Positions 8,495 through 31,223 of a stretch of 64,000 nucleotides of DNA are shown in pieces; within the stretch, counting starts at the first letter, position 1, and each line of letters starts with the position of its first letter. The notes under the pieces are model-generated. The model saw only the letters and a list, made by a program, of their open reading frames with translations, was not told the origin of the DNA and made no database searches. The stretch is from Thermodesulfobacteriota bacterium (GTDB lineage Bacteria > Desulfobacterota > Desulfarculia > JACQYL01). A program made the position numbers and the translations under genes. The stretch spans positions 896,001-960,000 of the forward strand of contig CAXXLZ010000002.1 of assembly GCA_963675595.2 (NCBI GenBank), in the 5' to 3' direction.

Positions 8495-9293
8495 TGTAGG
8501 GCGGCTCGATTTCGATATCCGAGCCGTATTGGGTAACCTGCACTTCGCAATCCTGAAGCAGAAAAATCAGAGCGACAAATCGCATCGCACGATCTCTTCG
8601 GGCATCATTGATCAGGGGATCAATCCTGGAAAACATGATTTGTCGATACATGTGAACCGAATCCAGGATATGGTGTCTGTACCGGGACAGCCCCGGAAGA
8701 TTCCCAGTCAGTGAAAACTCCTCACCCCAAACTCCCGCCCCAAAGCCGATGAAGCCCGACAATGCTTCAGTAAAGCCAGGCAAACGATCAACCTGAGGTT
8801 CCTCCAGTAACGTCAACCCGCGCGACCGCTCTTCTCGACGGGCGAGCCTCATCACCTCTCTTCGCCTTCTTGCCTTGGCTCTGGACTCGGCCATTCGTTG
8901 CCGGAAATAGGCTCGGTCGAAGACCCGTTCATCGAACAAGAACCGGGACGGCACGGTCTTCCCACAAGAAGCGCACGCATAATGAAAACTCCGCCTGACC
9001 AGCTTTGCTTCGCAACAGCCGCTCCTTTGAAACACCACTGCGGGGTCGAGTTCATGGCCGCTCAGACAAATGGCCAGACCTGCCTCCAGCATCCGAAGTT
9101 TTTGACCGCATAGATGACACGCAAAGCCGGAAAGCATGACATCGAAGTAGTAGCAACGGGCCTCCGCCTTCAATTGGACGACAGCCGCAACAAACAAAGC
9201 GACCGTCCTGCCGAAGCTTTCCTCTGGCTCCGGAGGAACAGGAACCGGCATCCAATTGTCGCTGCAATGTCCTGGAAGACTTTCGATTTCCAT
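8481..9293 (-). CDS. Multi-zinc-ribbon protein with a ScpA/kleisin-like C-terminal winged helix
   Basis: CHLC, CLSGH, SGCC, CASC; C-terminus RFVALIFLLQDCEVQVTQYGSDIEI; start placed at the ATG 30 nt below a TATA-like box. Confidence 0.55.
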   Translation of the reverse strand: MEIESLPGHCSDNWMPVPVPPEPEESFGRTVALFVAAVVQLKAEARCYYFDVMLSGFACHLCGQKLRMLEAGLAICLSGHELDPAVVFQRSGCCEAKLVRRSFHYACASCGKTVPSRFLFDERVFDRAYFRQRMAESRAKARRRREVMRLARREERSRGLTLLEEPQVDRLPGFTEALSGFIGFGAGVWGEEFSLTGNLPGLSRYRHHILDSVHMYRQIMFSRIDPLINDARRDRAMRFVALIFLLQDCEVQVTQYGSDIEIEPPYNETD

Positions 9294-9315
9294 CCATGAA
9301 AGAAACCAAGACCGG

Positions 9316-9365
9316 CATATAAACCTTTCTTTCAAAACCCGCAGAGGAAAGAAAAGTTTATATAC
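9316..9365. promoter_or_regulatory. Divergent pair of archaeal-type BRE-TATA promoters
   Basis: Minus strand GAAAGGTTTATATG (TATA at 9323-9316); plus strand GAAAAGTTTATATAC (TATA at 9357-9364). Confidence 0.55.
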
Positions 9366-9398
9366 ACCAGGGCCTTACCAAGTCCCGAGGTGATACCG

Positions 9399-9542
9399 AT
9401 GCCAAGACCCTATAAATGCCCGTACTGCGGCGCAACTCAAAGCCACTGGAAAGGATACAGGCCCCTTGTCCAGGGAAAAGTCAGACTCCGGATGTGCACC
9501 AAGTGCCACCGGAAGTTCACGACTCGGGTTAAGATCGAATAA
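9399..9542 (+). CDS. 47-aa zinc-ribbon protein (InsA-like), below the ORF-track cutoff
   Basis: MPRPYKCPYCG...RMCTKCHRKFTT; GAGGTGA RBS. Confidence 0.65.
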   Translation: MPRPYKCPYCGATQSHWKGYRPLVQGKVRLRMCTKCHRKFTTRVKIE

Positions 9543-9557
9543 CCACTGGACGGAACT

Positions 9558-10832
9558 TCAATGAAGACCGCCGAACGGCCCGGCCCCGAATCCTTCCCTC
9601 GTCAGGAATCGGTTGAGGGTTTCCTTGGGAAGCGACCTCGAGATTTCTCTTGTCTGGCCGTATCTGCCGCGTGATATCAGCCTGGCGTTGATCAGGCCAT
9701 AAAGGTCCAGGGAACCAATGATGTCCGAGAACCTCCGTTGCGTCAGCGGCCTGACCCGTTCCAACTCGCAGAAATTGGCGTATCGATCATAGGCCTCGCC
9801 TGTAGTGACCCGTTTCGAAGTCTTGGCCAACAGATCGTAGCAGGAAAGAAGCGCAAGTTTTTGCTGCGGAGCGAGAGCCCGAACCATCTCCTCGGTCTTG
9901 TCCATCTCCAATCTGTGCTCAGCCAAATCCACGATTTCTTCGGACAGCCTGCCGCCGGTTTCCTGTGCCACCTTGGCCGACTTTGATAGAAGTTCCACCG
10001 CCTTTCTCGCATCACCGGTTTCCCGCGACGCCAATGCCGCGATCTTTCGGACAGCAGCCACGTCCACCTTTGACTTGTCCAATGCCTTTTCCACTCGAAG
10101 ATTCAGAATTTCTATCAAATCCAAGGCGTTATAAGGTTCAAAGAGCATGTCCGTTTTCTTGAGAACGCTCAGAATCCGAGGGTCCAGCATCTTGTCCCAG
10201 TTCAGTTTGTTCGTAACCATGATGAGAACCAACCGGCAGGGAATCTTTCTCGGAAGGGTTTTCCCAAGGAAGGTAATAAACTCGTCCGCATTGGGCTTGA
10301 TATTATCCGCCTCATCAATGAGAAGGCACAAGAAACCCTGGAACCGGTTCAGCTCTTCGATGATCCGTTCCTGCATCTGATCGATGGGAATGCCTTTCCT
10401 GTAGGTGCGAATCGAATCATTGAGGGCTCTCGCAAGCTCGTTCAACGCTCCGAAAGAAGACCTGGGCGAGGTCAAGTCCACGTATCTGTACTGAAACCCG
10501 ACAGACTGGGTTCGACAGTATTCCTGAAACGTCGAAAGCACGTGAATGAGGGAAACCGTTTTCCCTGAACCCGTAGGCCCGAAGACCAGCAAAGAACTCG
10601 GATGATCGCCGTCCAGGATCGGAGTCAGATGACAGACGATGCGTTTCAGCTGCTCCTCCCGGATATTTCGATCAAAAATCTCTTTCAGAACAGAAGTCCG
10701 CTCTTCCTCAGGCAACTTCTCGTCGTCGAGATAGTTGGGGTTCAGAATAAGACGATGATTCTTCTGCGAGTCATGCAATGAGCGGATGAATTGCAAGGAA
10801 GCTTCGGAATGATCTCCACCGGACATTTTCAA
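9558..10832 (-). CDS. cdc6: Orc1/Cdc6-type replication initiator (AAA+ plus winged helix)
   Basis: GPTGSGKT, LLIDEAD, FEPYNA, GDARKAVELL, and the Cdc6_C motif LTQRRFSDIIGSLDLYGLI...SRGRYGQTREI. Confidence 0.92.
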   Translation of the reverse strand: MKMSGGDHSEASLQFIRSLHDSQKNHRLILNPNYLDDEKLPEEERTSVLKEIFDRNIREEQLKRIVCHLTPILDGDHPSSLLVFGPTGSGKTVSLIHVLSTFQEYCRTQSVGFQYRYVDLTSPRSSFGALNELARALNDSIRTYRKGIPIDQMQERIIEELNRFQGFLCLLIDEADNIKPNADEFITFLGKTLPRKIPCRLVLIMVTNKLNWDKMLDPRILSVLKKTDMLFEPYNALDLIEILNLRVEKALDKSKVDVAAVRKIAALASRETGDARKAVELLSKSAKVAQETGGRLSEEIVDLAEHRLEMDKTEEMVRALAPQQKLALLSCYDLLAKTSKRVTTGEAYDRYANFCELERVRPLTQRRFSDIIGSLDLYGLINARLISRGRYGQTREISRSLPKETLNRFLTREGFGAGPFGGLH

Positions 10833-10849
10833 ACGATTCTTCTACAGGA

Positions 10850-11280
10850 CATCTATAAATAGTTTTCGGTCCAGAATCCTGTCGTCACCTGACAGTTAAC
10901 CGGATGTTAAGTGTGGGAAAGTTTCTAGTGGAACTTTAAGTTTCAGTTTTTAGTGATGTTTTCTTTTCCTTATTATTATTTATTTCTATATAGAAACTAT
11001 ATAATATAATATCAAAGCCGCGAAAATATAGAAAAGTTTTTAAATGCGAATACTTCAGAATAGTAACAAGAAACAAAAATAACACACCCAACAAAAGGTT
11101 TTCAAGTTTTCCACGCGACATTTACACACACTCAAAATGATGATTTTGGACTACTATTGAGTGACAACGTGGAGGCCATGACGTCTCTCAAAGACCTCGA
11201 TCACCGACGGTATTTCAAGAAAACCCGAAACAATCGGCCATTCGACAGTACAAGAGCAACCTTTCCACCGGAAATTTACT
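10850..11280. other. Putative Orc1/Cdc6-dependent replication origin (ORB-like boxes + AT-rich unwinding element) including the cdc6 promoter
   Basis: GTTTCTAGTGGAAC (10921-10934) and TTTCCACCGGAAA (11262-11274) resemble the ORB core TTCCAGTGGAAAC; strongly AT-rich tract at ~10935-11100; minus-strand CGAAAACTATTTATAGA at 10868-10852. Confidence 0.6.
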
Positions 11281-11343
11281 CGGGTTCCCGAAGCCGGTTG
11301 ACGTCAATCCATCCATTCCTCCGAGCAAATTCCCGAAACCAAC

Positions 11344-11877
11344 CTACATCTCATCCCAGTCGATATACTGAGCCGGACTTTCTCCGACCCTTTCGACGAT
11401 CTTGGGATATTTTTCTCCAGGAGCCGCCTCTCCGATCCTAATCACCCGGATTTCGTGCCACCAATCGTCACCGAAATCGAACCAGTAGAAAAAGTAATCG
11501 CCCTCTTTCAGGTTCAGAGAGCCGATTTTGGTTTTTGAAACGTCGCCTGCCGGCGGAGGAGTTCCCAACGGATATTCCTTCATTTCGGTGGACAGCACAT
11601 ATCTCGCCGCCTCGGGATCCCGCGGTATTTTGGAGAGCTGAAACTCGTAAAGATGCTCGTCTTCACGATCGAAGGCTCTGAAGATCGCCCGGTGAAGCTG
11701 CTCCAGGGTATGCTTTCCCCTGATTTGAATGACTCGGGATACCGCCGGGTTCTTTGCGATGAAGGTCTTGCTCATGGGTCCGTTTGCAATCGAGACCTTC
11801 AAAGTGTGCAGATTCCTCGCCCGCTTTCCTCCGGAACTCGCCGCCATCCATTTCCTCCTTTCTGATCCGGACATCAA
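11344..11877 (-). CDS. Plasmid pRiA4b ORF3-like protein
   Basis: TLEQLHRAIFRAFDREDEHLYEF ... YWFDFGDDWWHEI ... YP. Confidence 0.85.
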   Translation of the reverse strand: MMSGSERRKWMAASSGGKRARNLHTLKVSIANGPMSKTFIAKNPAVSRVIQIRGKHTLEQLHRAIFRAFDREDEHLYEFQLSKIPRDPEAARYVLSTEMKEYPLGTPPPAGDVSKTKIGSLNLKEGDYFFYWFDFGDDWWHEIRVIRIGEAAPGEKYPKIVERVGESPAQYIDWDEM

Positions 11878-11947
11878 AAAGCTTATAAAGGAATGAACTT
11901 ATCGGTATCCAACGGAATCGGCAAGAACCGATTCGGAGGTGCACACC

Positions 11948-12391
11948 ATGGCAATGGAAACAAATTCGGCCACATCCGGCACACCGTCAAGCGGCTGTCC
12001 CACTTGGGACGGCATGGGCATATCCGGTGATCTGCCGCCCTTTTTCAAGCCCACCGAAGACATGAAACGAAACGGCTTCGAAGTGATCTTTCTGTCCGAC
12101 GGCCCCAGGAAAGAGACCGAGAACAACTTCGACAAGAACTCGAAAGACCTCTGGTTCGATATCTCCTACCAGGACAAGGAAATGACCTGGACCATCAGCC
12201 AGATCAGCCTGCTTTCCGAATTGAAGAAGCATTCACCGCTGAAGAAGAAGACCCTCAGGATTCGCCTTGTTCCGGTGACAGAGGAATTCAGGAAAAAGCG
12301 GCCGAAGTACAGAGGCAGCGAGCGATACCAGGTTGAAGAAATCCGAGAGAACCGATTCGACAAGATCGACGTGGAAGAACTGACGGTATAG
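11948..12391 (+). CDS. Hypothetical protein, possibly an OB-fold ssDNA-binding protein
   Basis: GGAGGTG RBS; AAAAAGCTTATAAAG promoter-like box at 11876-11890; beta-rich pattern with acidic tail. Confidence 0.6.
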   Translation: MAMETNSATSGTPSSGCPTWDGMGISGDLPPFFKPTEDMKRNGFEVIFLSDGPRKETENNFDKNSKDLWFDISYQDKEMTWTISQISLLSELKKHSPLKKKTLRIRLVPVTEEFRKKRPKYRGSERYQVEEIRENRFDKIDVEELTV

Positions 12392-12531
12392 ATATTCTTT
12401 CTTCTTTTTTGTTTCAGCCGATCGGAGAGCAAACGCCCGAGACACACTCAGCGGGGAACCGGAAAGAACGACGGTCTGAACCGCCGACAGAACGAAAGCA
12501 GGCTGCAATCTCAGGGGACTTTATCTGAAGC

Positions 12532-13251
12532 TCAGCCCAAGGTCGTGAGACCATGGAGAAGCGCGTATTTGGTCAACTGGGACATTCGCCTGGTTTTCAG
12601 CTTCTTCACAATATTTCTGCGGTGATTTTCCACCGTATTCACGCTGACACAGAGTACGTTCGCCATCTCCGCACTGGTCTTCCCCTCGGTCATACCCTGG
12701 AGAATTTCCTTTTCTCTCGGGGTCAACGAAGGAAGCGACCGGTGTCCGTTTCCATTTCCGAGCGCAAGAGCTTGAAACGCCTCAGTCATCGTTTCAGCGG
12801 ATTTGCGGCAGAGATACATTCGGCCTTCGAGCACCGATCGGACAGCCGCGACCAGCTCATGCAATCCGCTTTGACTGAGCACATACCCCATGGCCCCGGC
12901 AACGAGCATCTTGAACATGGGGTCCCATTCCGAATCCGGCGCGAGTCCAACCACCCGGGTTTTTCGAAACCGATGCGTGATTTGGCGCGCGGTCTCGATA
13001 CCGTTCAAACCCTTCATGGAAGTGTTCACGATCACCACGTCCGAGGGCGTATTGGACAGCAGTTTAAGTGCTTCATGACCGTCCAAAGCTTCGCCCGAAA
13101 CCTCGAAATCAGGAACAGAGCCCATCGCGTGCCGCAAACCATCGAGAATCAGCCTTTGATTATCCACCAAAAAGATTCGCTTCTCGAACCGCTCAACCGC
13201 TTCACCCTCTTCGGTTCGCTCCACGATCGCCCCCCGCAACAGACGATACAC
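12532..13251 (-). CDS. NarL/LuxR-family response regulator with a degenerate receiver domain
   Basis: Receiver fold plus LTPREKEIL...SVNTVENHRRNIVKKL HTH; the phospho-Asp position reads N (DVVIVNTSM). Confidence 0.9.
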   Translation of the reverse strand: MYRLLRGAIVERTEEGEAVERFEKRIFLVDNQRLILDGLRHAMGSVPDFEVSGEALDGHEALKLLSNTPSDVVIVNTSMKGLNGIETARQITHRFRKTRVVGLAPDSEWDPMFKMLVAGAMGYVLSQSGLHELVAAVRSVLEGRMYLCRKSAETMTEAFQALALGNGNGHRSLPSLTPREKEILQGMTEGKTSAEMANVLCVSVNTVENHRRNIVKKLKTRRMSQLTKYALLHGLTTLG

Positions 13252-13548
13252 TTCAGGATTGGATGCCCTGAAAACGAAAACCGGATATCACAATAGAAAA
13301 ATGTCACATTTCGGAGCTTGAATGATATAAAACTCTGAGACCTTGAACAATCGTAATAATCATGATTTTTCATCATGGATTTCATGATTTTGATCTGTGG
13401 AAATCGCTAGACGAACTAATGGATTTTATGATTCAACGCAGAAAGAAATGGAGGGACGAAAACCTGTGGTGGGACTATTCTATTGATATTATTTAAGATT
13501 CTTCTCGACCTGCGTCCGACGACCATGACCCCGAAAAGACCAACCCCA

Positions 13549-13600
13549 GGCTCCGTTTTCAATGGCCACGGCTGGCCACCATTTGATGTCTTCATCTACT
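13549..13600 (-). mobile_element. Orphan IS21-type terminal repeat remnant
   Basis: Reverse complement AGTAGATGAAGACATCAAATGGTGGCCAGCCGTGGCCATTGAAAACGGAGCC resembles the end at 3219. Confidence 0.6.
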
Positions 13601-13700
13601 CAACTCAACCACATCAAACGTGTCGCAAACGTGGAAAGCAATCTCACTCCCGCCGCTTTCTAACCCTCTGGAACCGGCAGGCAGGAACTCCTTCGGCACC

Positions 13701-14300
13701 TCATTTTACTTCTTTTTGGGAAAGCCTGATCGTTCGAGTAACCGTCTCGTGGGTATCATGGGAGATTCTTCCGTCGGCAAGCATCTCGTCGGCAAGGTCT
13801 TGTGCAGCGGCAAGATCAAGACGCCCGTCTTCAAGCCGGTCCCGAAGCTCGTCCTTCATTTCCATGGCCTTTCCATCACGTCGTTTCAATATCTGATGAT
13901 CCTCGGAAAGATCGATCAGCTGATCCATCGAAAGGCCCACGGAATCCAGATCTTCTTCGAACTGCTCTCTTCCCTTCTCGGAGAGATAGCGATGAAATTT
14001 GTCTTCCCATTCCGGCTGTGAGATGAATCCTTTGTCGTAAAGGTCATCGTACACTTCGAACTTCCGATCGGCGGTCAGCTCCTCGGCGTCCACAGGCTCT
14101 TCCGGATCAGTTTCGAAGGACAACAACTCCTTCCCCGCCTCCATGAACCAATCCATGAGGCCCTCCGATTTCGGATCCTCCTCAACAGAATCACAATCGA
14201 ATTCCTCTTCCCCTCGTTCCCAATCCTTTCTCACGGCAAACCTCCCTTTTCCAATAGAAGTGCTCGGAAAGAAATTTTCGTGTTTTGATTTTTTTCCCAC
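13701..14300 (-). CDS. Acidic hypothetical protein (true start uncertain)
   Basis: 199-aa D/E-rich ORF with protein-like composition. Confidence 0.5.
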   Translation of the reverse strand: MGKKSKHENFFPSTSIGKGRFAVRKDWERGEEEFDCDSVEEDPKSEGLMDWFMEAGKELLSFETDPEEPVDAEELTADRKFEVYDDLYDKGFISQPEWEDKFHRYLSEKGREQFEEDLDSVGLSMDQLIDLSEDHQILKRRDGKAMEMKDELRDRLEDGRLDLAAAQDLADEMLADGRISHDTHETVTRTIRLSQKEVK

Positions 14301-14371
14301 ACGTTTTCGATCGAGGGATCACTGGAGGAGTAAGGCAGGACGAAAACCACCCCAAACAAAAGGAGAAAGCC

Positions 14372-14623
14372 ATGAGATTTTCACGTCACCCCTTCACAGG
14401 AACGCTTCAGGTGAACTTCGGGCTTCCGCTTAGAAGAGACCATTTCAACCTGATTCACGATGTCAACGGAACAACCGTCGGCAGAATCGACCCCTGCGGC
14501 TTGGTCAAGGATCGCCTCGACAGAACCGTGGGGCACTACGACATTTTCAAAACTGAGGATTACTGCCCCTGCTGCGGGAAGCTGTCGAAGCTTTGCCGGT
14601 GTCATGGCCACGGCATGAGATAA
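14372..14623 (+). CDS. Small hypothetical protein with Cys-rich C-terminus
   Basis: AAAGGAG RBS; followed by a GAGCCCC-TTCG-GGGGCTC-type hairpin. Confidence 0.5.
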   Translation: MRFSRHPFTGTLQVNFGLPLRRDHFNLIHDVNGTTVGRIDPCGLVKDRLDRTVGHYDIFKTEDYCPCCGKLSKLCRCHGHGMR

Positions 14624-15026
14624 CCGCTCCCTTACCGAGCCCCTTCGGGGGCTCATCTTCATTTCCTTCCAGCCAAAACGCGCACGTCCTCTGGCCGCTC
14701 CCCAAGATACAGCCCGCCTCATAAAAATTAGTGGGGAAACAGAGCAAATCGTGCTGCGCCGGTAATTGCACAACGATCATTCCTCCTCCGACGACAATTG
14801 GAATTCAGGAAGGTCTCCACCCTTGCTCGCAGGCCGGCGTTCTGCTCGATCCGGTCGGTGCAAGGAATTCCGCTCCGAACTCGGCCTGCACCAGAACAAA
14901 TGGCCGTTACCTCGCTCCCGTTGGCGCCACCAGTTCGAAAGGGTCTCATCCTCCTCAAAAGGATGCGTAATCCGAAGTTCCAGTTTCATGGCTCTCAAAC
15001 CGGCACGGTGGTATTTAAACCTGTCG

Positions 15027-15053
15027 AAAAGAGGGCTCTTCGAGAGCCCTCTT
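15027..15053 (-). terminator. Intrinsic terminator after the DUF3150-like gene
   Basis: AAGAGGGCTCT-TCG-AGAGCCCTCTT stem with T-run on the minus strand. Confidence 0.65.
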
Positions 15054-15064
15054 CCAAATTTTGA

Positions 15065-15937
15065 TCAATCCATAACGATCTTTCGCCGCGGCTGGTTCAT
15101 TAGTTCCCTCACTTGGTCATTCACGGAAGTCATCGCTTCGCGAATCCGGTTCTTGAGGTAACCGCTTTCACGAATGGACTCAGGCGACCTTCCGTCGAGC
15201 ACCGATTCCGCCTGCTCCACGAGTTCAGCCAACCCATTGTCGTCGAACACGTTTCGTTGCTTGAAGTGTTCGAAGAACTCATAGAAATTCGTCACCGTCG
15301 ATCCTTTGAACTTCTTTGCTTCACCGTCCGGCCCGAGACCGAATCGCTCGCAGATATGCCCCACAAGATCGGCGAACTCCTCCCGAAGACACTGCACCGC
15401 AAGCTCCCTGGCCTCTTCCATGGTTTGGATGAACTTCAGTTTCTCTCGCTCATACACTTCCGGCGCCAATAGACCGAACCTGCCGTTGGGGACATCAAGA
15501 GCTACAAACCGCCACTCAAACGAAAACCGCCTATGAATATCCACGGGGTAGTCCTGCTCATTGAACAGGTCACCGAGATAGGCAATGGCCGAGTCCCTGA
15601 GCGCCGGATACCGTGAGGCAAAATCGTTTACGAGGTAACCGAACTCAGATTGAAGCTCCCGCAACTTCTCGTCCACCTCGGTGATCAAGTCTTTCGGCAC
15701 GAACATCATGCCGTGGATGGGAAAGGGCAGACTGACCGATGTGAGGTAGAGCCGGGAATTACCGGCCAACTTTGCAATGGGTTTCAGGCTTTCCGGATCC
15801 ACGAGCTTTTTTGTTGCATGGAGCCATTCGTGGTTCGTGGTCATTTGAGCGAGTTTTCCCTGCTCGATCTTTCTTCTCGCTCCCCACATGCTGATGGAGA
15901 GTTGCACCAGGCATCCTTTTTCGAAGATGTTTTCCAT
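15065..15937 (-). CDS. DUF3150-like protein
   Basis: LVQLSISMWGARRK N-terminus; typical position next to DUF2997/DUF1257/AAA. Confidence 0.7.
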   Translation of the reverse strand: MENIFEKGCLVQLSISMWGARRKIEQGKLAQMTTNHEWLHATKKLVDPESLKPIAKLAGNSRLYLTSVSLPFPIHGMMFVPKDLITEVDEKLRELQSEFGYLVNDFASRYPALRDSAIAYLGDLFNEQDYPVDIHRRFSFEWRFVALDVPNGRFGLLAPEVYEREKLKFIQTMEEARELAVQCLREEFADLVGHICERFGLGPDGEAKKFKGSTVTNFYEFFEHFKQRNVFDDNGLAELVEQAESVLDGRSPESIRESGYLKNRIREAMTSVNDQVRELMNQPRRKIVMD

Positions 15938-16029
15938 CGCCGTCTCCTTTCAGAAAAAAGAAAACCCCGATCTCCGAGTAACGGAAACCGGGGCATGCGT
16001 TGATTCGTGGTTGCAGTGTCGCGGAAGGT

Positions 16030-16230
16030 TCAGCCGCAAAGCGGCAGATACTTCTTCACCGCTTCTTTCTCCTCCTCGTAGTACGCTGGAGTCAGGCTTT
16101 GGGCGGTTTCTCTTCCAAGCAAATCCTTCAGGAATTTCGATTCCTCGATACAAGCCTTGCCCTTGAACCCTCTGGTTTCGAGCTTGATCTCGCCATCCAT
16201 GGACACTTCCACAATGATTTCCTTCATCAC
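16030..16230 (-). CDS. DUF2997-like small protein
   Basis: IIVEVSMDGEIKLETRGFKGKAC...TPAYY. Confidence 0.75.
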   Translation of the reverse strand: MMKEIIVEVSMDGEIKLETRGFKGKACIEESKFLKDLLGRETAQSLTPAYYEEEKEAVKKYLPLCG

Positions 16231-16236
16231 AGCCTC

Positions 16237-16608
16237 CTACATCCGGACGTGGAGCCGGATTGCATTTTCGGTTTTCTTTTCGATCACCGTGTAGCCTTTA
16301 CGCCGAGCTTCGATCCGGGTCTTCTCCACCGCATAGGCCTGCTTCAACAGTCCTCCGTTTACGCCGATTGCTTTTTCCACGTTAGGGTCGTAGAAGTCGC
16401 ACTGAAGTTCATACCTGTCATCCATCCTCTGAACGCCGATTTCATAATCCGCACCGGGCAATCGAATGGCATGCTCGCACGCTGCGTTGTTTCCGTACCA
16501 CCGGAACTCTTTCCTGCCTTCGAGGAAAATCAGACCCAGCCGATTACACGCAGACTTCAGGACAGCGAGGTCCTTTACTTCGAGTTCGATTTTGACGATA
16601 TGACTCAT
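16237..16608 (-). CDS. DUF1257 (Ycf35-like) protein
   Basis: MSHIVKIELEVKDL...YEIGV...DFY...LKQAYA. Confidence 0.75.
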   Translation of the reverse strand: MSHIVKIELEVKDLAVLKSACNRLGLIFLEGRKEFRWYGNNAACEHAIRLPGADYEIGVQRMDDRYELQCDFYDPNVEKAIGVNGGLLKQAYAVEKTRIEARRKGYTVIEKKTENAIRLHVRM

Positions 16609-21521: not shown

Positions 21522-21531
21522 GACGCTCCTC

Positions 21532-21813: not shown

Positions 21814-21893
21814 TTCTTTCTCCTGAAACAAAAAAAGGCCTGGAACCATTGGTTCCCGCCTCGTTAGGTCGACACTGTCCACCTGCCGTATGA

Positions 21894-22349: not shown

Positions 22350-22421
22350 AGAAACCTCCCTGGAAAACCCTTGATTGGGGCTGTCCACAATGCTCGGACA
22401 GCCCGTGAACTCGAGGTTGCC

Positions 22422-22679: not shown

Positions 22680-22772
22680 GATCCTTCCTCCTCTTTCGTT
22701 GATATGATGCTCTAACAGCCGCTCCACCCGCAGCGGATGCACAGCGGACATCGTCCGTCGCGGTGGAGAATT

Positions 22773-23072: not shown

Positions 23073-23286
23073 GATTCACCTCGTCTCTTTGGCTAGAGTG
23101 TTCGTTGTCATCGAAACGTGTGATTGAAGCTCTCGCTAAAACGAATGGGATACGTGCCGTCTTCAGGGACGGCGCGCCTTAAACGGTGGGTACAGGCTTC
23201 ACCCGACAAAATCGCTATTGGTGTTCCGGGGAAACCCGCATTGGTGACACGGATCGCTAAGCGCCTGGCTCTGCAAAGGTGTCCGC

Positions 23287-25311
23287 TTAACGTTCCGTTT
23301 TTTCGGTGAGCGGGATGGGAATGATTTTTTCGATGAAGTCCTTGGCGAGGTAGGCTTGAATGCCTTGAATCGTAAGGAATGATTGGATCTTGGTGAGGGC
23401 TTCGGGGTTCGTCGCGATCATGAACTTCTGAATGGAGGCATGGTTCGAGAGCGTCTCGATGTTCTTCCTGATGTCCGATTTGCCGGTCTCGACCTGAACC
23501 GCCAAACCACCGTTCCAGTCGGCCACGAGATCCAGGTTGTCCTTTTCCAGGAACACTCGGCAGGAAGCGCCAAGCGCCAGTCTGATTCTTTCGACCCAGT
23601 AGTTGTGCTCCAAACCGCCCCGAACTCGAGAATTCTCGAGTTTCAGGCCTTCTCTGTGGAGGTGCTCCACAGCCTGCGGCGTCAATTCAAAGAGCCGGTT
23701 TCGGTCCACAAGGACTTCCTTGAGCAGGCCTTTCGTGAGGAGACCGTCCAGGCAGAGAGTTCCCTCCCGAGGGTTCATTCCGAGCTTCTTGTAACGTTTT
23801 TGAACTCCGTCGAAGGGATGATGCGCGATGTCATCCAGCAGAATCCGCTCCATGGGGGAGAGTGTTTCCGAGCTTGAAATCTCATGAAAGGAGTTTATTT
23901 CCGGCTCTAGAGCTTGGTTTGGATGTTCATTTACTGAAGAAGAGTTTATTCTAGTTTGTATGACTTTATCCCGGACCATTCCCTTGTCGATTTTGAATTC
24001 CGGCACCGTTATCAGGAACGGAAACGGGACCCTTCCGGTCTTCACAATGGCCTCTCCGACCTTGAGCATGCCGTAGTAAGTCTCATTCCCGGTGGGAATG
24101 AGCTGGGAACGGCTCAAACTCGAAAAATCTTGAGACAGAGAGGTTTGAAAGCCGATCCGGGTGTAGACATTCCCAAGGGCTGAGACTGAGACTTTGTGGG
24201 GATGCTGATCAAGAATCACGATGCCTTCCCCGAGTTCCCTGATCTCCCTCATCATGACGTCGGTGATATCCTCTTCCTTGCTCGTTCGAAGAAGCAGGTG
24301 ATGGGCTTCCTCGATGACGATCATGTGCTTCAGAATCTCCCTTTCCGGCTCCTGCATCCGGTAGAAGTAGATCCAAAGAAGCAGGCTTCCGATGATGAAG
24401 GTCTTGTCCGAATCCGAAAGTCCGTCCAGCTCCAGGATCACGTTTTTCCGGAGCAGTTTTGGGATTGAAATGGGACTGAGACTGGGACTGAGAGCGGGAT
24501 TGAGCTTGGGAATAGGACTGGGATTGGGACTGGGACTGAGACTGACGCCGGGGGATTGAAAATTCACAACCTCGTTCAGGCCCGGGAAGGTGAGACTGTT
24601 CAGGGTTCTCTTGGCCGAACTCAGCCAAAGCATTTCTCTGCCACGGCGGTTTTGCTTGTCGATATACCGCTTCATGTCCGCGAAGGTGGGGAGACTCATG
24701 GCGTCCATCAAGACGTCCGACGCTCCCGGACCTAACAGATAAGCCTTCTCGATAATCTCCATCAGTTTCTTCGACCAGATGTGAGACTCCACTCCGGGCG
24801 GAGGAATCTTTGGATTGAAACGGAAAGGGCTGACCTCCCTTCCCACGGTAAAGATCAGAATGTCCTCGCTGCGGAAATCCGGATGTGTCAAAAGGTCCCG
24901 GTAGTTTCGTTTCCAGTCGAAGATCAGAAACGGGATTCTAGCTTTCACGAACTCCCGCAGAAGATTCATGCAGGCTGTGGTTTTTCCGGAGCCGGTCTGT
25001 CCGAAAAGACCCACATGGCGAATCAACTCCTCCTTTCTGAGACCGAAAGGGCAGAGCTTCCTGCCGCAATAGGAGACATGTCCGAGTTGCAATTCCCCGG
25101 CCGCCTCATTCTTTCCCGGCGGCGGCAGCATAACGGCGTTTTCGAACGCCACACCCGTGTGCTGCAGAAGCATGGAATCGACCATGGATTCGATCTCTCT
25201 CTTAGCTCTTGGATTCTCCTCCATCTGATAAAGCGACCACAAAGCCCGAAGCTCTCCTGAAGAGACAAAAGGCTCGAGCCGTCTCAGCTTTTCGGCGACG
25301 GTTACGATCAT
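23287..25311 (-). CDS. DUF87/HerA-VirB4-like ATPase with C-terminal winged-helix and degenerate nuclease-like domain
   Basis: GQTGSGKT, IFDWKRNY, IVIEEAH, RELGEGIVILDQ; C-terminal GGLEHNYW...DLVA...AVQVETGKS. Confidence 0.8.
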   Translation of the reverse strand: MIVTVAEKLRRLEPFVSSGELRALWSLYQMEENPRAKREIESMVDSMLLQHTGVAFENAVMLPPPGKNEAAGELQLGHVSYCGRKLCPFGLRKEELIRHVGLFGQTGSGKTTACMNLLREFVKARIPFLIFDWKRNYRDLLTHPDFRSEDILIFTVGREVSPFRFNPKIPPPGVESHIWSKKLMEIIEKAYLLGPGASDVLMDAMSLPTFADMKRYIDKQNRRGREMLWLSSAKRTLNSLTFPGLNEVVNFQSPGVSLSPSPNPSPIPKLNPALSPSLSPISIPKLLRKNVILELDGLSDSDKTFIIGSLLLWIYFYRMQEPEREILKHMIVIEEAHHLLLRTSKEEDITDVMMREIRELGEGIVILDQHPHKVSVSALGNVYTRIGFQTSLSQDFSSLSRSQLIPTGNETYYGMLKVGEAIVKTGRVPFPFLITVPEFKIDKGMVRDKVIQTRINSSSVNEHPNQALEPEINSFHEISSSETLSPMERILLDDIAHHPFDGVQKRYKKLGMNPREGTLCLDGLLTKGLLKEVLVDRNRLFELTPQAVEHLHREGLKLENSRVRGGLEHNYWVERIRLALGASCRVFLEKDNLDLVADWNGGLAVQVETGKSDIRKNIETLSNHASIQKFMIATNPEALTKIQSFLTIQGIQAYLAKDFIEKIIPIPLTEKTER
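24461..24546 (-). repeat. Hexamer (CAGTCY-like) microsatellite, in frame inside the ATPase gene
   Basis: Encodes SLSPSPNPSPIPKLNPALSPSLSPISIP. Confidence 0.8.
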
Positions 25312-26078
25312 TGGAACTCCCTCTCACACCAACCCCCGCATAGACAGGGGTAGTCCTCTTCACGCTCCGACCGGGTCAGCTCGTGCATTCGGCGGATTTC
25401 TTCCGCAGCCCAGTCAACCAGTTCTTGGGTAGGCTTGAAAATCTTGGGATTGTCTTTGGAGGATGGGAATTTCAGGAAATGAACTGAGACTCGATCGGGC
25501 AGCTTTCCGTTCACTTCCTGCTCGAGGAGGGCGTAGATCGCAAGCTGGAGTTTGATATCCGGCGAGATGTCCTGGTATTTCGAAGTCTTATAATCCCTGA
25601 TCTCGACGAATTCTCGAGAATAACGGGCATCCACGATGCCTTGGGCACCATGAAGTTGACTCACGAGCCGTTTTTCCGGCTCCGGCGGGCTTCTTCCGCT
25701 GCTCATTTCGCGGATAAACTGGTGAAGCCAGTTCAACGCCATCTTCCGAGCCTCAACAAGTTGGCCTTCGGCCTCGTCCCTATGGCCGCAGAGCGTCTGA
25801 ATCTCGAGAATTCTCGAGTTCCACAGGAAATCCACCCTGTCCAGTATTCGCCTTCGCGCATCTGCGTAGGGCGCTTCGAGAAACTCGGGAGTATATTCCC
25901 GAACAAAGGCTTCCGCAGCCTGGTGAACCACCTGCCCCACGATGAAGCACATCTTGGGTTTGGTCTTCAGTTTCCTGACGTATCTAAGGTAGAACTTTCT
26001 CGGGCATCCCCACCGGAACTGCGCATCCTTCTTGTAGGAGAGAATGGCCGACGGGCTCAGGATTCGTTTGAAGGTCAT
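25308..26078 (-). CDS. PD-(D/E)XK (Cas4/AddB-like) nuclease
   Basis: LSPSA...CPRKFYLRY, G.VVH, GIVDA, IRDYKT, QLAIY, C-terminal CLCGGWC. Confidence 0.88.
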   Translation of the reverse strand: MTFKRILSPSAILSYKKDAQFRWGCPRKFYLRYVRKLKTKPKMCFIVGQVVHQAAEAFVREYTPEFLEAPYADARRRILDRVDFLWNSRILEIQTLCGHRDEAEGQLVEARKMALNWLHQFIREMSSGRSPPEPEKRLVSQLHGAQGIVDARYSREFVEIRDYKTSKYQDISPDIKLQLAIYALLEQEVNGKLPDRVSVHFLKFPSSKDNPKIFKPTQELVDWAAEEIRRMHELTRSEREEDYPCLCGGWCEREFQ

Positions 26079-26236
26079 TTTGATCGGTCAAAACGGCTCC
26101 GCACCTGCATTTCCCTCACAAAGTACACGATCACTTTTTCCAGTTGATGTTTTTCCATGGCGAGCGCGAAGGCTCCCGGCACTTCATAGAGCTTCTCCAC
26201 GTCCGTCATGGTGACGTCCTTATATTGGTATTTCAT
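26075..26236 (-). CDS. 53-aa hypothetical protein, below the ORF-track cutoff
   Basis: MKYQYKDVTM...RFDRSK; fills the operon gap exactly, with an ATGA overlap to the nuclease gene. Confidence 0.6.
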   Translation of the reverse strand: MKYQYKDVTMTDVEKLYEVPGAFALAMEKHQLEKVIVYFVREMQVRSRFDRSK

Positions 26237-26238
26237 TC

Positions 26239-26760
26239 TCAGGTTTTTCCTCCCAGCAGCTTGGCCTTGTCCTCTATCGACCTCCGGTACTCCACGGTAT
26301 CCCTGAGTTCCTTGCCCAAAAACAGAATGTCCCTGAAATAGGCGGCAAGTTCCATTCTCCGGTCCCGCTCGAGATCGATCTTCCGCGTCTCCAATCCGAT
26401 CCAGTCCCGGTCCCTTCGATAGACCTTGTAGCCCATCTCGAAAATAAGGTTCTGGCAGGCGCAGAGATCCCGCTCGATGCCGTAGAGGTTCTCCTCCTTG
26501 ATCAGCCTCCGCTTATCGATGGCTTCGATCACGGCTTCGATCCGATCTTCCGTCCTTTGAATCTTCGCTCCCAACATCCCTTCCAGGCTCGGAACCCCCA
26601 CATTTTTTTCGGAGGGCACACCTTCGTAAACAGAAGGGGACGCCAAGTACGACGCTCCGCTTCCGTAAGGGGAGACCAAGTAGGACGCGCCGCTTCCGTA
26701 ATCCCGTGTGGCCCGCATGGGAGAGTACGAATCAAGCCGCGAAAAATAATCATCACTCAT
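26239..26760 (-). CDS. Coiled-coil hypothetical protein
   Basis: First gene of the operon; duplicated YGSGASYL(V/A)SP motif. Confidence 0.65.
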   Translation of the reverse strand: MSDDYFSRLDSYSPMRATRDYGSGASYLVSPYGSGASYLASPSVYEGVPSEKNVGVPSLEGMLGAKIQRTEDRIEAVIEAIDKRRLIKEENLYGIERDLCACQNLIFEMGYKVYRRDRDWIGLETRKIDLERDRRMELAAYFRDILFLGKELRDTVEYRRSIEDKAKLLGGKT

Positions 26761-26779
26761 AAGTAGTTGAAATCAGCTT

Positions 26780-26797
26780 CTTATATAAAAAGCTTTC
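26780..26797 (-). promoter_or_regulatory. Archaeal-type BRE-TATA promoter (leaderless)
   Basis: GAAAGCTTTTTATATAAG; TTTATATA starts 29 nt before the SD-less ATG at 26760. Confidence 0.55.
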
Positions 26798-26881
26798 CCT
26801 TTTTCCCGCTCAAATGAACGACCCGAAGCCAAACAGCTACACACGAATCCCTTTCAGAGGCCACTTACTGGTCAATGGCGG

Positions 26882-27838
26882 ATGAAATTGGAAGGCGTCC
26901 CCGCCGTCCCCAACCCCGAACGAAAGGAGGAGATATCCGATCAAAAAACGCTGCGCCTTAACCCCTTTTCGAAAAAGGAGACCCAAGCCATGGCTGCAAA
27001 AGCATCCTGTGGAAGGAGAAATCCGCCGGCATTGAAGAGCGGCAACACCGGTCATTACGACCTCGATCTCATGCTCGGCCATTCGCCCTTCCAGCCCCTC
27101 ATGCCCGTGGAAGCGTTGAAGCGCGCTCAAAATCATGCCTGGCTCTCGAAGAAACTGAAAAGAACCTTCGAGGAAAACGTGGCCTGCGGCATGAACTCGG
27201 TTCTGGAGGGATGGCCTCTCCAGGCTGAAACACGCCTCTGCAAGGCTCTTCAGGCCTTTGACGACGACAGGATCAAGCGCGTCACAGGCGCCTTGAAAGA
27301 GGTCTATTACAACGGCGGCCTCATGGGACACGTGGAGTCGCTTCAGCCTCCCATCCGACTCAAAGGAAAGGACTTCGTCTGGCACGGCGAGTTGGTGGGA
27401 GGAATGCGGGAATTTTCCAGAGACGATCAGGTCATTCCGTTCAAGATTCACGAAAGGATCGTTTACCTGAGGGAAGCCGGTATTCGGTTCCCGGAATACG
27501 CGATGTTCGTTCCCGGTGAATCCTTTGACCCCTCCAAGAAGGAACTGGCCAGGCAGGAACTCGGCAAGATGGGCAAGGAACTCGTCCTTGCCGCCAAAGC
27601 CACGGGTACCGCTGTGAAGGTAACGGCCAAGGCCGTGTTCGACGAGACCAAGGCAGTGGCGAGAACGGTCGGAAAAGCACCGGGGCTTTTCGCCGGCGCA
27701 TTTGCCGCCGTGCCCACGGCCATTGCAATCCCCATGGCTCTTGCGGCGGTTCCCGACCCGATCTTGTGCGGGGTCATTCGTCTGTCCAATCCCAAGACCG
27801 GAGGCTATGTCCTCATCAACCTCGGCAAATGGATCTAA
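26882..27838 (+). CDS. Hypothetical protein
   Basis: 318-aa ORF with hydrophobic C-terminal segment, followed by a hairpin at 27847-27873. Confidence 0.6.
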   Translation: MKLEGVPAVPNPERKEEISDQKTLRLNPFSKKETQAMAAKASCGRRNPPALKSGNTGHYDLDLMLGHSPFQPLMPVEALKRAQNHAWLSKKLKRTFEENVACGMNSVLEGWPLQAETRLCKALQAFDDDRIKRVTGALKEVYYNGGLMGHVESLQPPIRLKGKDFVWHGELVGGMREFSRDDQVIPFKIHERIVYLREAGIRFPEYAMFVPGESFDPSKKELARQELGKMGKELVLAAKATGTAVKVTAKAVFDETKAVARTVGKAPGLFAGAFAAVPTAIAIPMALAAVPDPILCGVIRLSNPKTGGYVLINLGKWI

Positions 27839-27893
27839 TGCCTCAAACCCGCCCCTCGATTCCGGGGGCGGGTGCGGGAAAGGAGGATCGTGT

Positions 27894-28598
27894 ATGGCAG
27901 GATTTGAAGACTTACCGTCGGGAGTGGTCTTGGGAAGAAACGGCAGGCCTGAAGCGGATTCATGGAGTGCCTGGTATCTGCGAGCGCTCCATTGGCAGGT
28001 CATGATGCTCTTCTTTGTCGTTGTCGCGCTTGTCGGTCACTACATGATCGCCCGGTACGGTATCGCTTCCAAGGACTTCCTGGTGTTCGTCCTGGTCTCG
28101 GGTCTGGTCTTCTGGGCCTTGATCCTAAGGGCGTTTTTCATCCTGAGAGGATTTCTGCAACCGAGAACAAGGCTCATCGCAAGCATCCTCTGTAGCGCCC
28201 TCATCCTGGCTCTTCCCTATCTCTACTTCGTCAATTCGGGAGCCGGGTTTTCCTTCGAGGGTCTGCTGAACGCCATCCGCCTGCCGGATTATGTCTTCCG
28301 TAAGGAACCGGTGCATTCGGTGCCCTACGATCCCTGGGACCCGACCCACGGTTACGTGACCTACAAACTGAATCCCTATGCCGAAGTCGTCCTCCGCGAC
28401 AAGGACGATCATGTGATCTCTTCCTTCGAGACCCACTACCGCTTCAACCAGAAGCTCCCTGCCGGTTGTTATACCCTGGAGATGAATTACCTGGGACGAA
28501 ACATCCAGGACAAGATCATTGTCCGGGCCGGGGAAAGGTACGTGGTCAAAGCCAACATGTTCAGAATGGACACCGAGATCTTCGGGGAGGGAGGATGA
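27894..28598 (+). CDS. Membrane protein (3 predicted TM) with a C-terminal PEGA-like beta domain
   Basis: AAAGGAGG RBS; hydrophobic helices; KLPAGCYTLEM...IIVRAGE. Confidence 0.65.
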   Translation: MAGFEDLPSGVVLGRNGRPEADSWSAWYLRALHWQVMMLFFVVVALVGHYMIARYGIASKDFLVFVLVSGLVFWALILRAFFILRGFLQPRTRLIASILCSALILALPYLYFVNSGAGFSFEGLLNAIRLPDYVFRKEPVHSVPYDPWDPTHGYVTYKLNPYAEVVLRDKDDHVISSFETHYRFNQKLPAGCYTLEMNYLGRNIQDKIIVRAGERYVVKANMFRMDTEIFGEGG

Positions 28599-28604
28599 GT
28601 CGCC

Positions 28605-29045
28605 ATGAAAAAGACATCGTTGATCGCCCTGTTCCTGATCCTCTCCCTCGGCTGCGGGAAACGAACCGTGGTGAGGGAACGAACGATCATCCGATACCAA
28701 CCCGTTCCTGTGAAAGAGGAAGTGCGGGTGGTGGAAAAGGCGCCGGTCAACCATTTTACGGTGAACTATCCCAAGCAGACCGCGGACGGCTACTTCGAGA
28801 CCGGCAAGATCGCCTACGGAAACTGTAATTTTCAGGAAGCCATGCGATGTTTCGCCGTTGTGCTGAACAGCTCGGCTCCGCCGGAGATCATCGCTGAGTC
28901 CTACGCCTACATGGGAGCCTGCTGTTTCTACGAAGGAAGAATGCGAGAGGCTGAGATGTTTTGTGAAAAGGCCAGGAAGACCTACCCCCAAATCAGACTT
29001 CGCCGGGAGGAATTCCCCAGAGAGGTGATCGAATTTTGTAACTGA
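28605..29045 (+). CDS. TPR lipoprotein
   Basis: Lipobox SLGC; TPR-like helices. Confidence 0.75.
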   Translation: MKKTSLIALFLILSLGCGKRTVVRERTIIRYQPVPVKEEVRVVEKAPVNHFTVNYPKQTADGYFETGKIAYGNCNFQEAMRCFAVVLNSSAPPEIIAESYAYMGACCFYEGRMREAEMFCEKARKTYPQIRLRREEFPREVIEFCN

Positions 29046-29065
29046 AAAAGCCTCCTTTCTCCGTC

Positions 29066-29090
29066 AAAAGGGCTCTATCGGAGCCCTTTT
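29066..29090. terminator. Bidirectional intrinsic terminator
   Basis: AAAAGGGCTC-TATCG-GAGCCCTTTT. Confidence 0.75.
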
Positions 29091-30077
29091 CTTATGCCCG
29101 AAAGATGGGAAATAATCTCAGTATTACTCAAATATAAACTTACATAAACCTGCATAAACTCACCAAAGACATAAAAAACCACACGAAAACTTGTTTTCGT
29201 GTGATATAAAATCATAGCTTTAATTATCTCACATAATCGCCAAGACCACCAAAAGCCCGCCGGAGGCGGGCCCCGCCCGCAGGGCGAAGGGGCGTTGGGT
29301 TCGTTAGAACCCGACTCACCGTGAACCCCATGGGGTTCACCAACCCACTCCCATCAAATTTCCATCGAACCGCTCCGATCCCAAAAGACCCCGATATCCA
29401 TCATCGGTCTTCCTCGGATCATAAAGTGACGATTTCCCAATCCCTAAAATCCGACTCTTCGGACATACCCAACCCCCCCCCCCCCGATCTCACCTCCGCC
29501 GTGGAACCAATCACCCATCTTCCCGACGGTAGGATACTCCCACCGGAAGCAGCCGCTCCGGACCACTCTCCCCTTCCAAAGAAGCATGCGTAGTAAGCAT
29601 CCGCTCAACGGATCGCATGCGCAACCCAAGTGTTCTTCCCGGTCATCGGCACACTTCGGAACCAGGGTCTTCAGTGTCACACGAAACCCGCCCTCTAAAA
29701 TGAATAGCGCCACCCGGCTCGTACCGATACGACCCGGCATGGCCACTTCATCGAGCGCTTGCCCAGACGAAAGCCGCAACGGCTCGCCCTTCTTGAAAGC
29801 GCTCAACGGTAATTCCCGCTCGCGGCACGAATTGCCGGCGACAATCATTACCACAAACATGGCCATGAAAAGGACGCCACTGACCGGCCTCATGGCCTTG
29901 CCCATCTCGCTCCGAGATGAAAAACTTTCGGCCGATGCCCGGAGCAGCGGACATCCGACCGCAAAGCTTATTAAGGAGCCGTCCTCAACTCTCCATACGC
30001 AGAGCGCATAGAGGAGAGCAACCATTCGAACGACTCCGTCGCCGCTCTGCCGAAAACCGACGTTCTAACACAGCGAA

Positions 30078-30632
30078 TCAGGGGCCTCGTTGCCCCTGCC
30101 AAATCTCCGCCGCTTTTTCTACAAGCCCGACAAGCTCCCTTGCCTTGCGGCGATGCTCGAAAGCCTGCTCCCGGTCACGACTTACTTGGGAGCGTCTCAT
30201 GTGCTCCATCGCGGGACCCATGAACTCATCCTCGACAAGAAGCTTGGCTCGCCCGAGCGTGTTCCGCTTTCCGTCATCATTCGAAAGACAGCTGTGCATG
30301 ATCGCCAAGTCCTGGATTTGCTCGAGCACTTTCCCGATCCTGTACCGCCGTTTGTCCACTTCGTATTTCCCGCAAACTCGCTCGAAGTCCCAGGTATTGA
30401 AAGCGCTTTCTGGATCAGACCAATCAAGCCATGCCCGGCTTTGGCCCTGTTCAGCTACCCGCATGATGGGCTCGTGCTCGCTCTGCACGTACCAGGCGAT
30501 GAATTCCTGGGCCTCGTCTTTCTCGTCGTCACTGTATCCAAGCCATGGATCGCTACTGCGCAGGATTTTCAATCCTGCTGGTGCCGGTGTGTCGAGTACG
30601 CTATATTCAACTACAACTTGTTTTTGTTTCAT
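30078..30632 (-). CDS. Hypothetical protein
   Basis: GGAGGAAGG RBS before MKQKQ; helical composition. Confidence 0.55.
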   Translation of the reverse strand: MKQKQVVVEYSVLDTPAPAGLKILRSSDPWLGYSDDEKDEAQEFIAWYVQSEHEPIMRVAEQGQSRAWLDWSDPESAFNTWDFERVCGKYEVDKRRYRIGKVLEQIQDLAIMHSCLSNDDGKRNTLGRAKLLVEDEFMGPAMEHMRRSQVSRDREQAFEHRRKARELVGLVEKAAEIWQGQRGP

Positions 30633-30957
30633 GATGCCTTCCTCCCGGAGTCCGATTCTTTGACCGGACTCTCTCGGCTGTGTATTCACCGAGAGAGTGG
30701 AGGGATCATCAAAAGAGGAAGGAAACATTCGGAGACGTAAGTCGATCTGCCGGTGGTAGAATCGTTTTCAGGCGACCCTCGCAGAGGGGAAAGGCTTAAA
30801 TAGGGCTTTCGGCGATGGAGCCGAATCCCATTTATGCCTTTAGCCGTGAAGAAAACGGTAGCTACTCGAAGCTGATACCATATCGATACGCCTATCCTAT
30901 AATCCGGAAGAGCTTCTTCGCTTTGATCCAGAAACTGGATATGCTACAATCGATTGC

Positions 30958-31164: not shown

Positions 31165-31223
31165 TCACTTGCAATGCCTGGCCATGTGGGCAAAGTTGTA
31201 TGCGATGACCTCCATCAGCAGCT

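Follow-up and report, generated by a model that had tools for sequence, protein, structure and literature searches.

In the window under study, a 64,000-nucleotide (nt) stretch of the genome of a Thermodesulfobacteriota bacterium (C2:896001-960000 of a 6.79 Mb genome in three contigs, 98% complete), an integrated element was delimited by blastn against the host's own genome (positions 7714..32430, copy A of four), and is hereafter called the island. We report that the core operons of this island are headed by boxes which, judged from their sequence, are core-promoter elements of archaeal sequence, geometry and ancestry, composed of a B recognition element (BRE) rich in A, usually cGAAA, and a TATA box of the form TTTAWATA. 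Sequence comparison further indicates that selection acts, in elements residing in bacteria, on these boxes and, for the majority of lineages, on how far they lie from the start codon or from the Shine–Dalgarno (SD) sequence, because both are kept across paralogues and relatives while the spacers are scrambled.

A preliminary description of this DNA had placed such boxes at the heads of the island core operons, where we also find them, upstream of three start codons devoid of an SD on the minus strand, and had listed five further matches on the plus strand. All eight motifs are present in the sequence. The distances given for the minus-strand sites were approximate: counted from the 3' end of the TATA octamer, as is done throughout, they measure 22, 25 and 21 nt. 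The motifs GGAG, GAGG and AGGA are missing from the three spacers before ATG 9293, ATG 10826 and ATG 26760, in agreement with the proposed lack of an SD. A fourth minus-strand box, absent from that description, lies before ATG 14989. The sites and the genes they precede are the following.

9329 to 9316, minus strand: BRE/TATA-like box GAAAGGTTTATATG, 22 nt before ATG 9293 of p271, no SD.
10867 to 10852, minus strand: BRE/TATA-like box GAAAACTATTTATAGA, 25 nt before ATG 10826 (orc1/cdc6) and 19 nt before TTG 10832.
15025 to 15012, minus strand: BRE/TATA-like box GACAGGTTTAAATA, 22 nt before ATG 14989 of a 70-amino-acid (aa) open reading frame (ORF).
26797 to 26782, minus strand: BRE/TATA-like box GAAAGCTTTTTATATA, 21 nt before ATG 26760 (p173).
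9351-9366, plus strand: perfect BRE/TATA-like box GAAAAGTTTATATACA, 22 nt before the SD GAGGTGAT (9387-9394), followed by ATG 9399.
9399-9542, plus strand: SD-led gene of a 47-aa Zn-ribbon protein, NrdR-type (27.9 bits).
11031-11046, plus strand: box GAAAAGTTTTTAAATG within the AT-rich origin region, no start codon within 130 nt.
11876-11891, plus strand: weak box AAAAAGCTTATAAAGG, 45 nt before the SD GGAGG (11935-11939), with ATG 11948.
About 29962-29976, plus strand: box site inside an opposite-strand ORF, poor fit.
30789-30802, plus strand: box GAAAGGCTTAAATA, centre of a BRE-TATA-BRE palindrome, ATG 30815 just 12 nt on.

Specifically, TATA octamers of the consensus TTTAWATA occupy positions 9316-9323, 9357-9364, 10852-10859, 15012-15019 and 26782-26789, and at each main site a purine/A-rich BRE (GAAAG or GAAAA) directly abuts the TATA box, so that the BRE-TATA identity originally assigned to these motifs agrees with the archaeal consensus. 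The centre of the TATA box lies 25.5-29.5 nt upstream of ATG 9293, 10826, 14989 and 26760, the ATG being taken as proxy for the transcription start site (TSS), and 26.5 nt upstream of the first SD base of the Zn-ribbon gene, which serves there as proxy. In archaea, according to the accessible text of PMC5316973, the TATA box is found about 27 nt and the BRE about 33 nt upstream of the TSS, and leaderless mRNAs and short leaders with an SD (GGDGRD) are common. On sequence grounds, the boxes would fit the archaeal TATA position, provided that the ATG or the first SD base was the TSS, and the archaeal spacing claimed for the SD-less starts is consistent with these distances. The plus-strand matches fared less uniformly: all five exist, yet the one at 9351 precedes an SD-led gene, those at 11876, 29961 and 30789 do not follow this geometry, and the one at 11031 is without a gene. 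The box at 30789 is outside the leaderless geometry because the next ATG is only 12 nt away. The palindrome centred on this box (GGAAAGGCTTAAATAGGGCTTTCG, 30785-30812) is kept in all four island copies, and on the minus strand a short GC hairpin comes after it; a bidirectional promoter, or one for a non-coding RNA, is a possible role.

The boxes are far more frequent in the island than expected by chance. When the pattern GAAARNTTTWWAWA was searched with at most one mismatch, seven matches were found in the window against 1.21 expected, all seven within 9316-30802, and none of 100 shuffles reached this number; in the whole genome the exact pattern occurs 14 times, 11 of them inside the four island copies. 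A position weight matrix (PWM) built only from 18 promoters of relatives gave, at a cut-off of at least 16.35 bits, 66 matches in the genome, 17 of which fall in the four island copies. In island A alone, five matches were obtained, compared to 0.17 in 200 dinucleotide shuffles, none of which reached five. Among AT-matched windows of 100 nt with 40-49% GC, the match rate was 18/249 inside the copies against 60/7524 outside, and the other GC bins showed a 1.8- to 4-fold excess inside. Because the four copies are paralogous, counts that pool them exaggerate the independence of the matches. Both controls suggested in the preliminary description, shuffled and AT-matched, thus gave the enrichment that it had anticipated.

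The surroundings of the PWM matches are also informative. Eight of the 17 matches in the copies are followed 21-25 nt on by an ATG that opens 173-422 codons, six have an SD 20-23 nt on, and three have neither ATG nor SD. Among the 49 matches elsewhere, seven show an ATG 17-28 nt on that opens at least 60 codons, and four of these seven belong to paralogues of a single 390-aa membrane and coiled-coil protein, p390, encoded 14-42 kb outside the island copies.

C2:879633-880843 (L100:3633-4843), C2:4233651, C2:1700173 and C1:1404536: p390 paralogues, with box GAAAACTATTTATACC, 21-22 nt, ATG.

A homologue of p390, 36% identical and located about 3.3 kb from cdc6 in the external locus L029, shows the same arrangement of box, 22 nt and ATG. 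Other ORFs of about 390 codons behind boxes were rejected as p390 paralogues. The boxes are almost restricted to the element and to element-linked genes.

We then compared the promoters among the four island copies. On the p271 promoter all four retain the box, the ATG and the distance between them, although the spacer of 22-23 nt is heavily diverged in sequence. The Zn-ribbon box (9351) is identical in the four copies and its -35 region differs among them; the cdc6 box (10852) is likewise identical in four. At ATG 14989, copies A, B and C agree in box, ATG and spacing but differ in the central part of the spacer, and the p173 box (26782) is kept in the same three copies. The box at 11031 is kept in copies A and B and altered in C.

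The same features extend to distant relatives. In the Zn-ribbon set, all 19 dereplicated loci (18 relatives and the window's own) carry a cGAAA-N2-TTTAWA box, 21-24 nt of unrelated spacer, (G)AGGTGAT, 4-5 nt and an ATG. For cdc6, 74 upstream regions were dereplicated to 62, of which 61 are not the window's own; requiring at least seven of eight positions, a box is found in 52 of the 61, and the nine loci below this limit were left out of the logo. In this logo the positions T-T-A-(A/T)-A-T-A are each 94-98% conserved, with A in 92% at -4 and in 87% at -3, figures that are inflated by the anchoring of the logo on the best TATA match, while the base after the box is free (T in 42%). By a rough estimate, about 19% of loci would hold a 7/8 match by chance, against 85% observed. 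Among 21 dereplicated p271 relatives, the first in-frame ATG lies 20-25 nt after the box in six and the second ATG does so in five (11/21); the loci L006, L009 and L059 are not independent because they are near-identical. The cGAAA form of the BRE is seen in the Zn-ribbon and p271 promoters of relatives. In conclusion, the conservation across homologous islands that the preliminary description had put forward for verification was found, box and spacing being kept in the four copies and in distant relatives.

By eye, a partly palindromic motif of the CCTTGAAGG / CCTGTAGGGACC type was noticed in many of the relatives' Zn-ribbon spacers, between the TATA box and the SD (window 9365-9386). This motif may be an operator.

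The host of these elements is a bacterium, Desulfarculia-like and of sulfate-reducer type, as the preliminary description had assumed. This assignment follows from its bacterial rRNA (the rRNA operon scores 1630 bits with the bacterial small-subunit model and 1077 bits with the archaeal one), from the failure to detect TBP, TFB and the TFIIS ribbon, from its bacterial relatives, and from the bacterial hybrid sensor kinases that flank island copy B on either side. Specifically, a six-frame search of the genome gave no match to TBP (PF00352) or to the TFIIB/TFB cyclin domain (PF00382) whereas the controls matched in four archaea, and it did not find the TFIIS ribbon, for which archaeal controls matched as well. 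A true MCM was not found in the host either: PF00493 gave nothing beyond weak AAA+ cross-matches, which score no more than 35.6 bits and are of a sort that all 14 control genomes show as well, and here too the archaeal controls matched. On the island copies themselves, no TBP, TFIIB, TFIIS ribbon or sigma-70 region 2 was found, and the nine sigma-70-family genes of the host all lie outside them. Among named relatives that carry the element, the nearest is a metagenome-assembled genome of Desulfarculia, of the same class as the host.

The other three copies of the island map to C2:4271228-4298064, C1:1418368-1444125 and C2:1658056-1627043 (inverted), with common segments 86-97% identical, apart from one short segment at 76%, and with a sharp left edge, at 7714/7715 in the window, common to all copies. 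The left end constitutes a conserved core made of orc1/cdc6, an AT-rich stretch flanked by origin recognition boxes (ORB), the Zn-ribbon gene and the operon p271-p123-p135.

8481..9293, minus strand: p271, 270-aa Zn-ribbon protein, first gene of the core operon p271-p123-p135 (tblastn homologues).
8126-8494, minus strand: p123, core operon.
7709-8119, minus strand: p135, core operon, predicted winged helix.
9558-10826, minus strand: Orc1/Cdc6, AAA+ with lid and C-terminal winged helix (Pfam Cdc6_C 85.9 bits, Cdc6_lid, AAA_22).
10905..11135, no strand: archaeal-type origin layout, with an ORB-like box at 10922-10934 (plus strand), an AT-rich stretch and an inverted long ORB-like box at 11107-11131.

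The Orc1/Cdc6 protein matches Protein Data Bank entries over its full length (2qby_A, E 2.7e-51; 2v1u_A, E 6.6e-51). Upstream of its gene, inverted long ORB-like boxes of the TTCCAnnGGAAAnTTTACnCnCCCAC type enclose the AT-rich stretch, further ORB-like boxes overlap the cdc6 start, and two tandem short ones (TTTCaTGTGGAGGTA, AAAATGTCCnGTGGA) are found between the TATA box and the start; their likeness is to what we take to be the archaeal ORB consensus. The same layout occurs in the copies and upstream of the cdc6 genes of relatives (L002, L003, L006, L012-L091). Cdc6 relatives at 58-69% identity are abundant in metagenomes, and the named ones are all bacterial (Thermodesulfobacteriota, delta proteobacterium NaphS2 and Desulfarculia). 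The element family occurs in 3 of 61 genomes of the class and in 3 of 401 of the phylum, with 2-4 copies in every carrier, and is thus a patchy, multi-copy, Orc1/Cdc6-based element family of Thermodesulfobacteriota. A viral origin was rejected, as no Cdc6 relative was found in IMG/VR and a phage collection gave only haloarchaeal virus proteins, 23-25% identical. A bacterial plasmid replicon was rejected as well, the matches listed from PLSDB being archaeal, mostly haloarchaeal, plasmids at 26-32% identity. Four unrelated metagenome contigs carrying the cdc6 family (L018, L046, L071, L077) are all 57.5-59.6 kb long; a free or complete form of the element might have this length.

Since the host has neither TBP nor TFB, the boxes cannot work there as true archaeal promoters. 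We tentatively favour, while holding it at somewhat below even likelihood, the reading that the host RNA polymerase (RNAP) holoenzyme reads the boxes and starts near the archaeal start position. This reading is favoured because of a precedent: according to the accessible part of PMC8943987, the Halobacterium salinarum RM10 promoter is active in E. coli, with a start 2 bp from the archaeal TSS, the TATA hexamer acting as an essential '-29 element' together with a -10 and an extended -10 (TG) and with no -35. By analogy, the role of an upstream '-29-type' element would fall to the AT-rich TATA/BRE block, assisted by a weak A/T patch near -10, and transcription would start about 22-25 nt past the box, about where the archaeal pre-initiation complex begins. 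This would give leaderless mRNAs for p271, p173, the 70-aa ORF, p390 and perhaps cdc6, and a Zn-ribbon mRNA with a 12-13 nt leader opening with the SD. The ORB-like Cdc6 sites near the cdc6 box and the conserved palindrome in the Zn-ribbon spacer may regulate these promoters.

Several observations weigh against a start at the archaeal position. In most relatives (for example L038, L055 and L081) the cdc6 box, flanked by ORB-like boxes, lies about 34 nt before a conserved ATGTCC, compared to 25 nt in the window, and the anchoring of the cdc6 logo lessens the weight of its conservation. Six of the p271 relatives are SD-led at about 35 nt and two lie at 34 nt, the rest being without a box; in distant relatives of p173 the box is found about 30-32 nt upstream of the ATG; and the 12 nt at 30789 show that the geometry is not universal. 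By eye, no clear -10 hexamer at -12..-7 was recognised in the spacers, and the promoter that provides the E. coli precedent has a good -10 and an extended -10, whereas the island promoters have no evident ones. Finally, on the cdc6 promoter of the loci L002/L003 an AGGAGG SD would be cut by a TSS at the archaeal position, and a start about 7 nt past the box fits better.

This last point leads to a reading that we regard as rather doubtful, although closer to the favoured one in weight than the others, in which the TATA box is a plain sigma-70 -10 element with a start about 7 nt on, its archaeal look and spacing being inherited baggage; it predicts SD-less leaders of 14-18 nt, or leaders of about 27 nt containing the SD. 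It agrees with a host that has bacterial RNAP only, with the ease with which AT-rich octamers melt in a genome of 56% GC, with the variable spacing in part of the family, and with the SD being wholly inside such a transcript both at L002/L003 and at the window's Zn-ribbon gene. However, no box holds a TAnnnT register with both A-11 and T-7, because the base after the conserved octamer is free, and a sigma-70 -35/-10 consensus scan of 7600-27500 gave 8 sites against 10.3 expected, none of them at any box. The conserved cGAAA is left unexplained, as is the distance of 21-24 nt that separates box and SD at all 19 Zn-ribbon loci, and SD-less leaders of 15 nt would be odd in a host in which, in a crude gene set, 33% of the first ATGs of long ORFs are preceded by an SD-like motif, against 10.7% of random positions. 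The boxes might also be recognised by an element-encoded DNA-binding protein (p135, p123, p271 or the 47-aa Zn ribbon) that recruits host RNAP or represses, selection for that factor keeping the box. All four candidates accompany cdc6 in 23-26 external loci (tblastn), the boxes are nearly confined to the element and linked genes, and the structure model of p135 is a winged helix (pLDDT, a model confidence score, of 77) with weak matches to archaeal AbfR2, LmrR/PadR, TFE-alpha and MarR. These matches have E values of 0.008-0.05 and none reaches 0.001, so the predicted p135 fold is that of a generic winged helix; the fold search gave no match for p123, nothing ties the candidates to the box, and a private operator would hardly coincide with the archaeal BRE/TATA on an element that also has an archaeal-type origin. 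We consider this explanation distinctly improbable.

The complete archaeal-type module (Orc1/Cdc6, ORB-like boxes, BRE/TATA and archaeal geometry) and a dinucleotide signature atypical for the host (delta* 48.8, the host median being 23.4 and 2% of host windows deviating as much) would suit a family that moves between archaea and bacterial partners, its boxes being used by TBP/TFB in archaea and idle in bacteria. Yet every named close relative is bacterial, the Atlas clusters of p271 consist of 100% Bacteria, the nearest archaeal plasmid and virus Cdc6 proteins are just 23-32% identical, the copy number per bacterial genome is 2-4, and a group II intron of bacterial style has entered one of the copies, all of which makes such traffic very improbable. 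To regard the boxes as chance AT-rich words without function would account for the three or four listed sites without a fitting gene (11031, 11876, 29961 and 30789), and we give it next to no probability: it is contradicted by the enrichment over shuffles and AT-matched windows and, for the main sites, refuted by the position and sequence kept in paralogues and relatives with randomised spacers. A broader proposal is that Thermodesulfobacteriota elements keep an archaeal information-processing module (Orc1/Cdc6 origin and BRE/TATA promoters with archaeal start geometry) running in bacteria, either with p135, p271, p123 and the 47-aa Zn ribbon replacing TBP/TFB and steering bacterial RNAP, or by elements commuting between syntrophic archaea and bacteria; we judge it unlikely. 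Initiation by the host RNAP near the archaeal start position is the account we retain, with the reservations set out above.

Turning to the remaining gene content, p173 heads an operon with a PD-(D/E)XK nuclease and a HerA-like ATPase (26760->23287). These two and a nucleoside deoxyribosyltransferase belong to the accessory genes of the island, which by Pfam also include PRiA4_ORF3, a LuxR response regulator, DUF3150, an AAA ATPase, DUF2958 and RadC. Neither the island nor the flanking DNA of copy B showed a recognisable integrase or conjugation gene. The proteins p271, p123, p135 and p173 have no family match in Pfam, NCBIfam or PHROGs, and for p271 the Atlas gave only weak ScpA/kleisin leads (scores 0.76-0.79).

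At the p123/p135 junction, the TGA of p123 (8123-8125) is in frame with the conserved p135 frame, which starts directly after it and lacks a canonical start codon in the vicinity; relatives encode p135 as a separate protein of 137 aa, about 300 nt after p123. The arrangement may reflect a deletion, an odd start codon or read-through of the TGA from p123 into p135, the last being disfavoured, since no relative spans the junction and their p135 proteins stand alone. On the minus strand a group II intron, within window positions 16605-20572, splits the AAA ATPase gene into 19625-20572 and 16605-17087, with Rfam domain V at 17088-17177 and a reverse transcriptase/maturase/HNH ORF at 17177-19039. 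Copy B apparently has two tandem copies of the intron, as window 17084-19648 matches it twice in a row. To the right of the island, three insertion sequences (IS) occupy 33146-34585, which contains a Mutator-family transposase (33257-34483), 35906-37748 and 38855-40154, in a genome rich in IS; the second has about 15 genome copies at 94-96% identity and the third, of 1.3 kb, about 25 copies at 99-100%. Giant ORFs on the minus strand at 46923-54038 and 58861-63999 (2371 aa and more than 1700 aa), with a strong negative GC skew, consist of internal repeat units that are 72-87% identical to one another.

Few features separate Bacteria from Archaea as sharply as promoter grammar does, and here archaeal-style boxes appear to be kept by selection in bacteria without TBP/TFB, on the same element that carries an Orc1/Cdc6 origin into cells without MCM. 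This bears on how genes survive cross-domain transfer, on the extent to which the two initiation systems overlap, and on a possible native use of TATA/BRE by bacterial RNAP. The element also offers a natural system for an Orc1-type initiator working with a bacterial replisome.

A literature search, with most subscription journals outside its reach, turned up no account of this element family, nor any of archaeal-type promoters that are conserved in bacteria, and bacterial Orc1/Cdc6 goes unmentioned in the accessible text of Raymann et al. 2014 (PMC3914693). The closest counterparts of the boxes are core promoters of the Thermococcales and methanogen type, in which an 8-bp TTTAWATA likewise stands directly behind an A-rich or cGAAA BRE. 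The sequence AAANNTTTATATA is reportedly the Methanococcus 'box A' consensus of Thomm and Wich (1988); the host genome matches it exactly at four places, every one of them a Zn-ribbon promoter in the four copies. Genes with archaeal core promoters are leaderless or have very short SD leaders, as we presume for those behind the island boxes. The difference is that archaeal core promoters need TBP, TFB and archaeal RNAP, whereas this host is without TBP/TFB and has a bacterial RNAP, and the spacing is variable in part of the family.

The origin can be compared with those of archaeal chromosomes, plasmids and proviruses, which likewise place Orc1/Cdc6 beside inverted ORB-like boxes and AT-rich DNA, with more boxes over its own promoter. 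Unlike these replicons, the element resides in bacterial chromosomes without detectable MCM, and its Cdc6 is 23-32% identical to archaeal plasmid and virus Cdc6. Within bacteria, the late promoters of phage T4 (TATAAATA, read by gp55, with the box at -10) provide a case of a single AT-rich octamer without a -35 that is read via an element-encoded factor. The island boxes differ in their presumed place around -27, and the island yielded no sigma gene, gp55-like or other. The Halobacterium RM10 promoter is the one experimental model we encountered for the firing of such boxes in a bacterium and, for the island boxes, it suggests by analogy an archaeal TATA that would serve as an upstream element for bacterial RNAP with no -35. 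That case is an artificial transfer, whereas the island is a natural setting in which the boxes are conserved across the element family.

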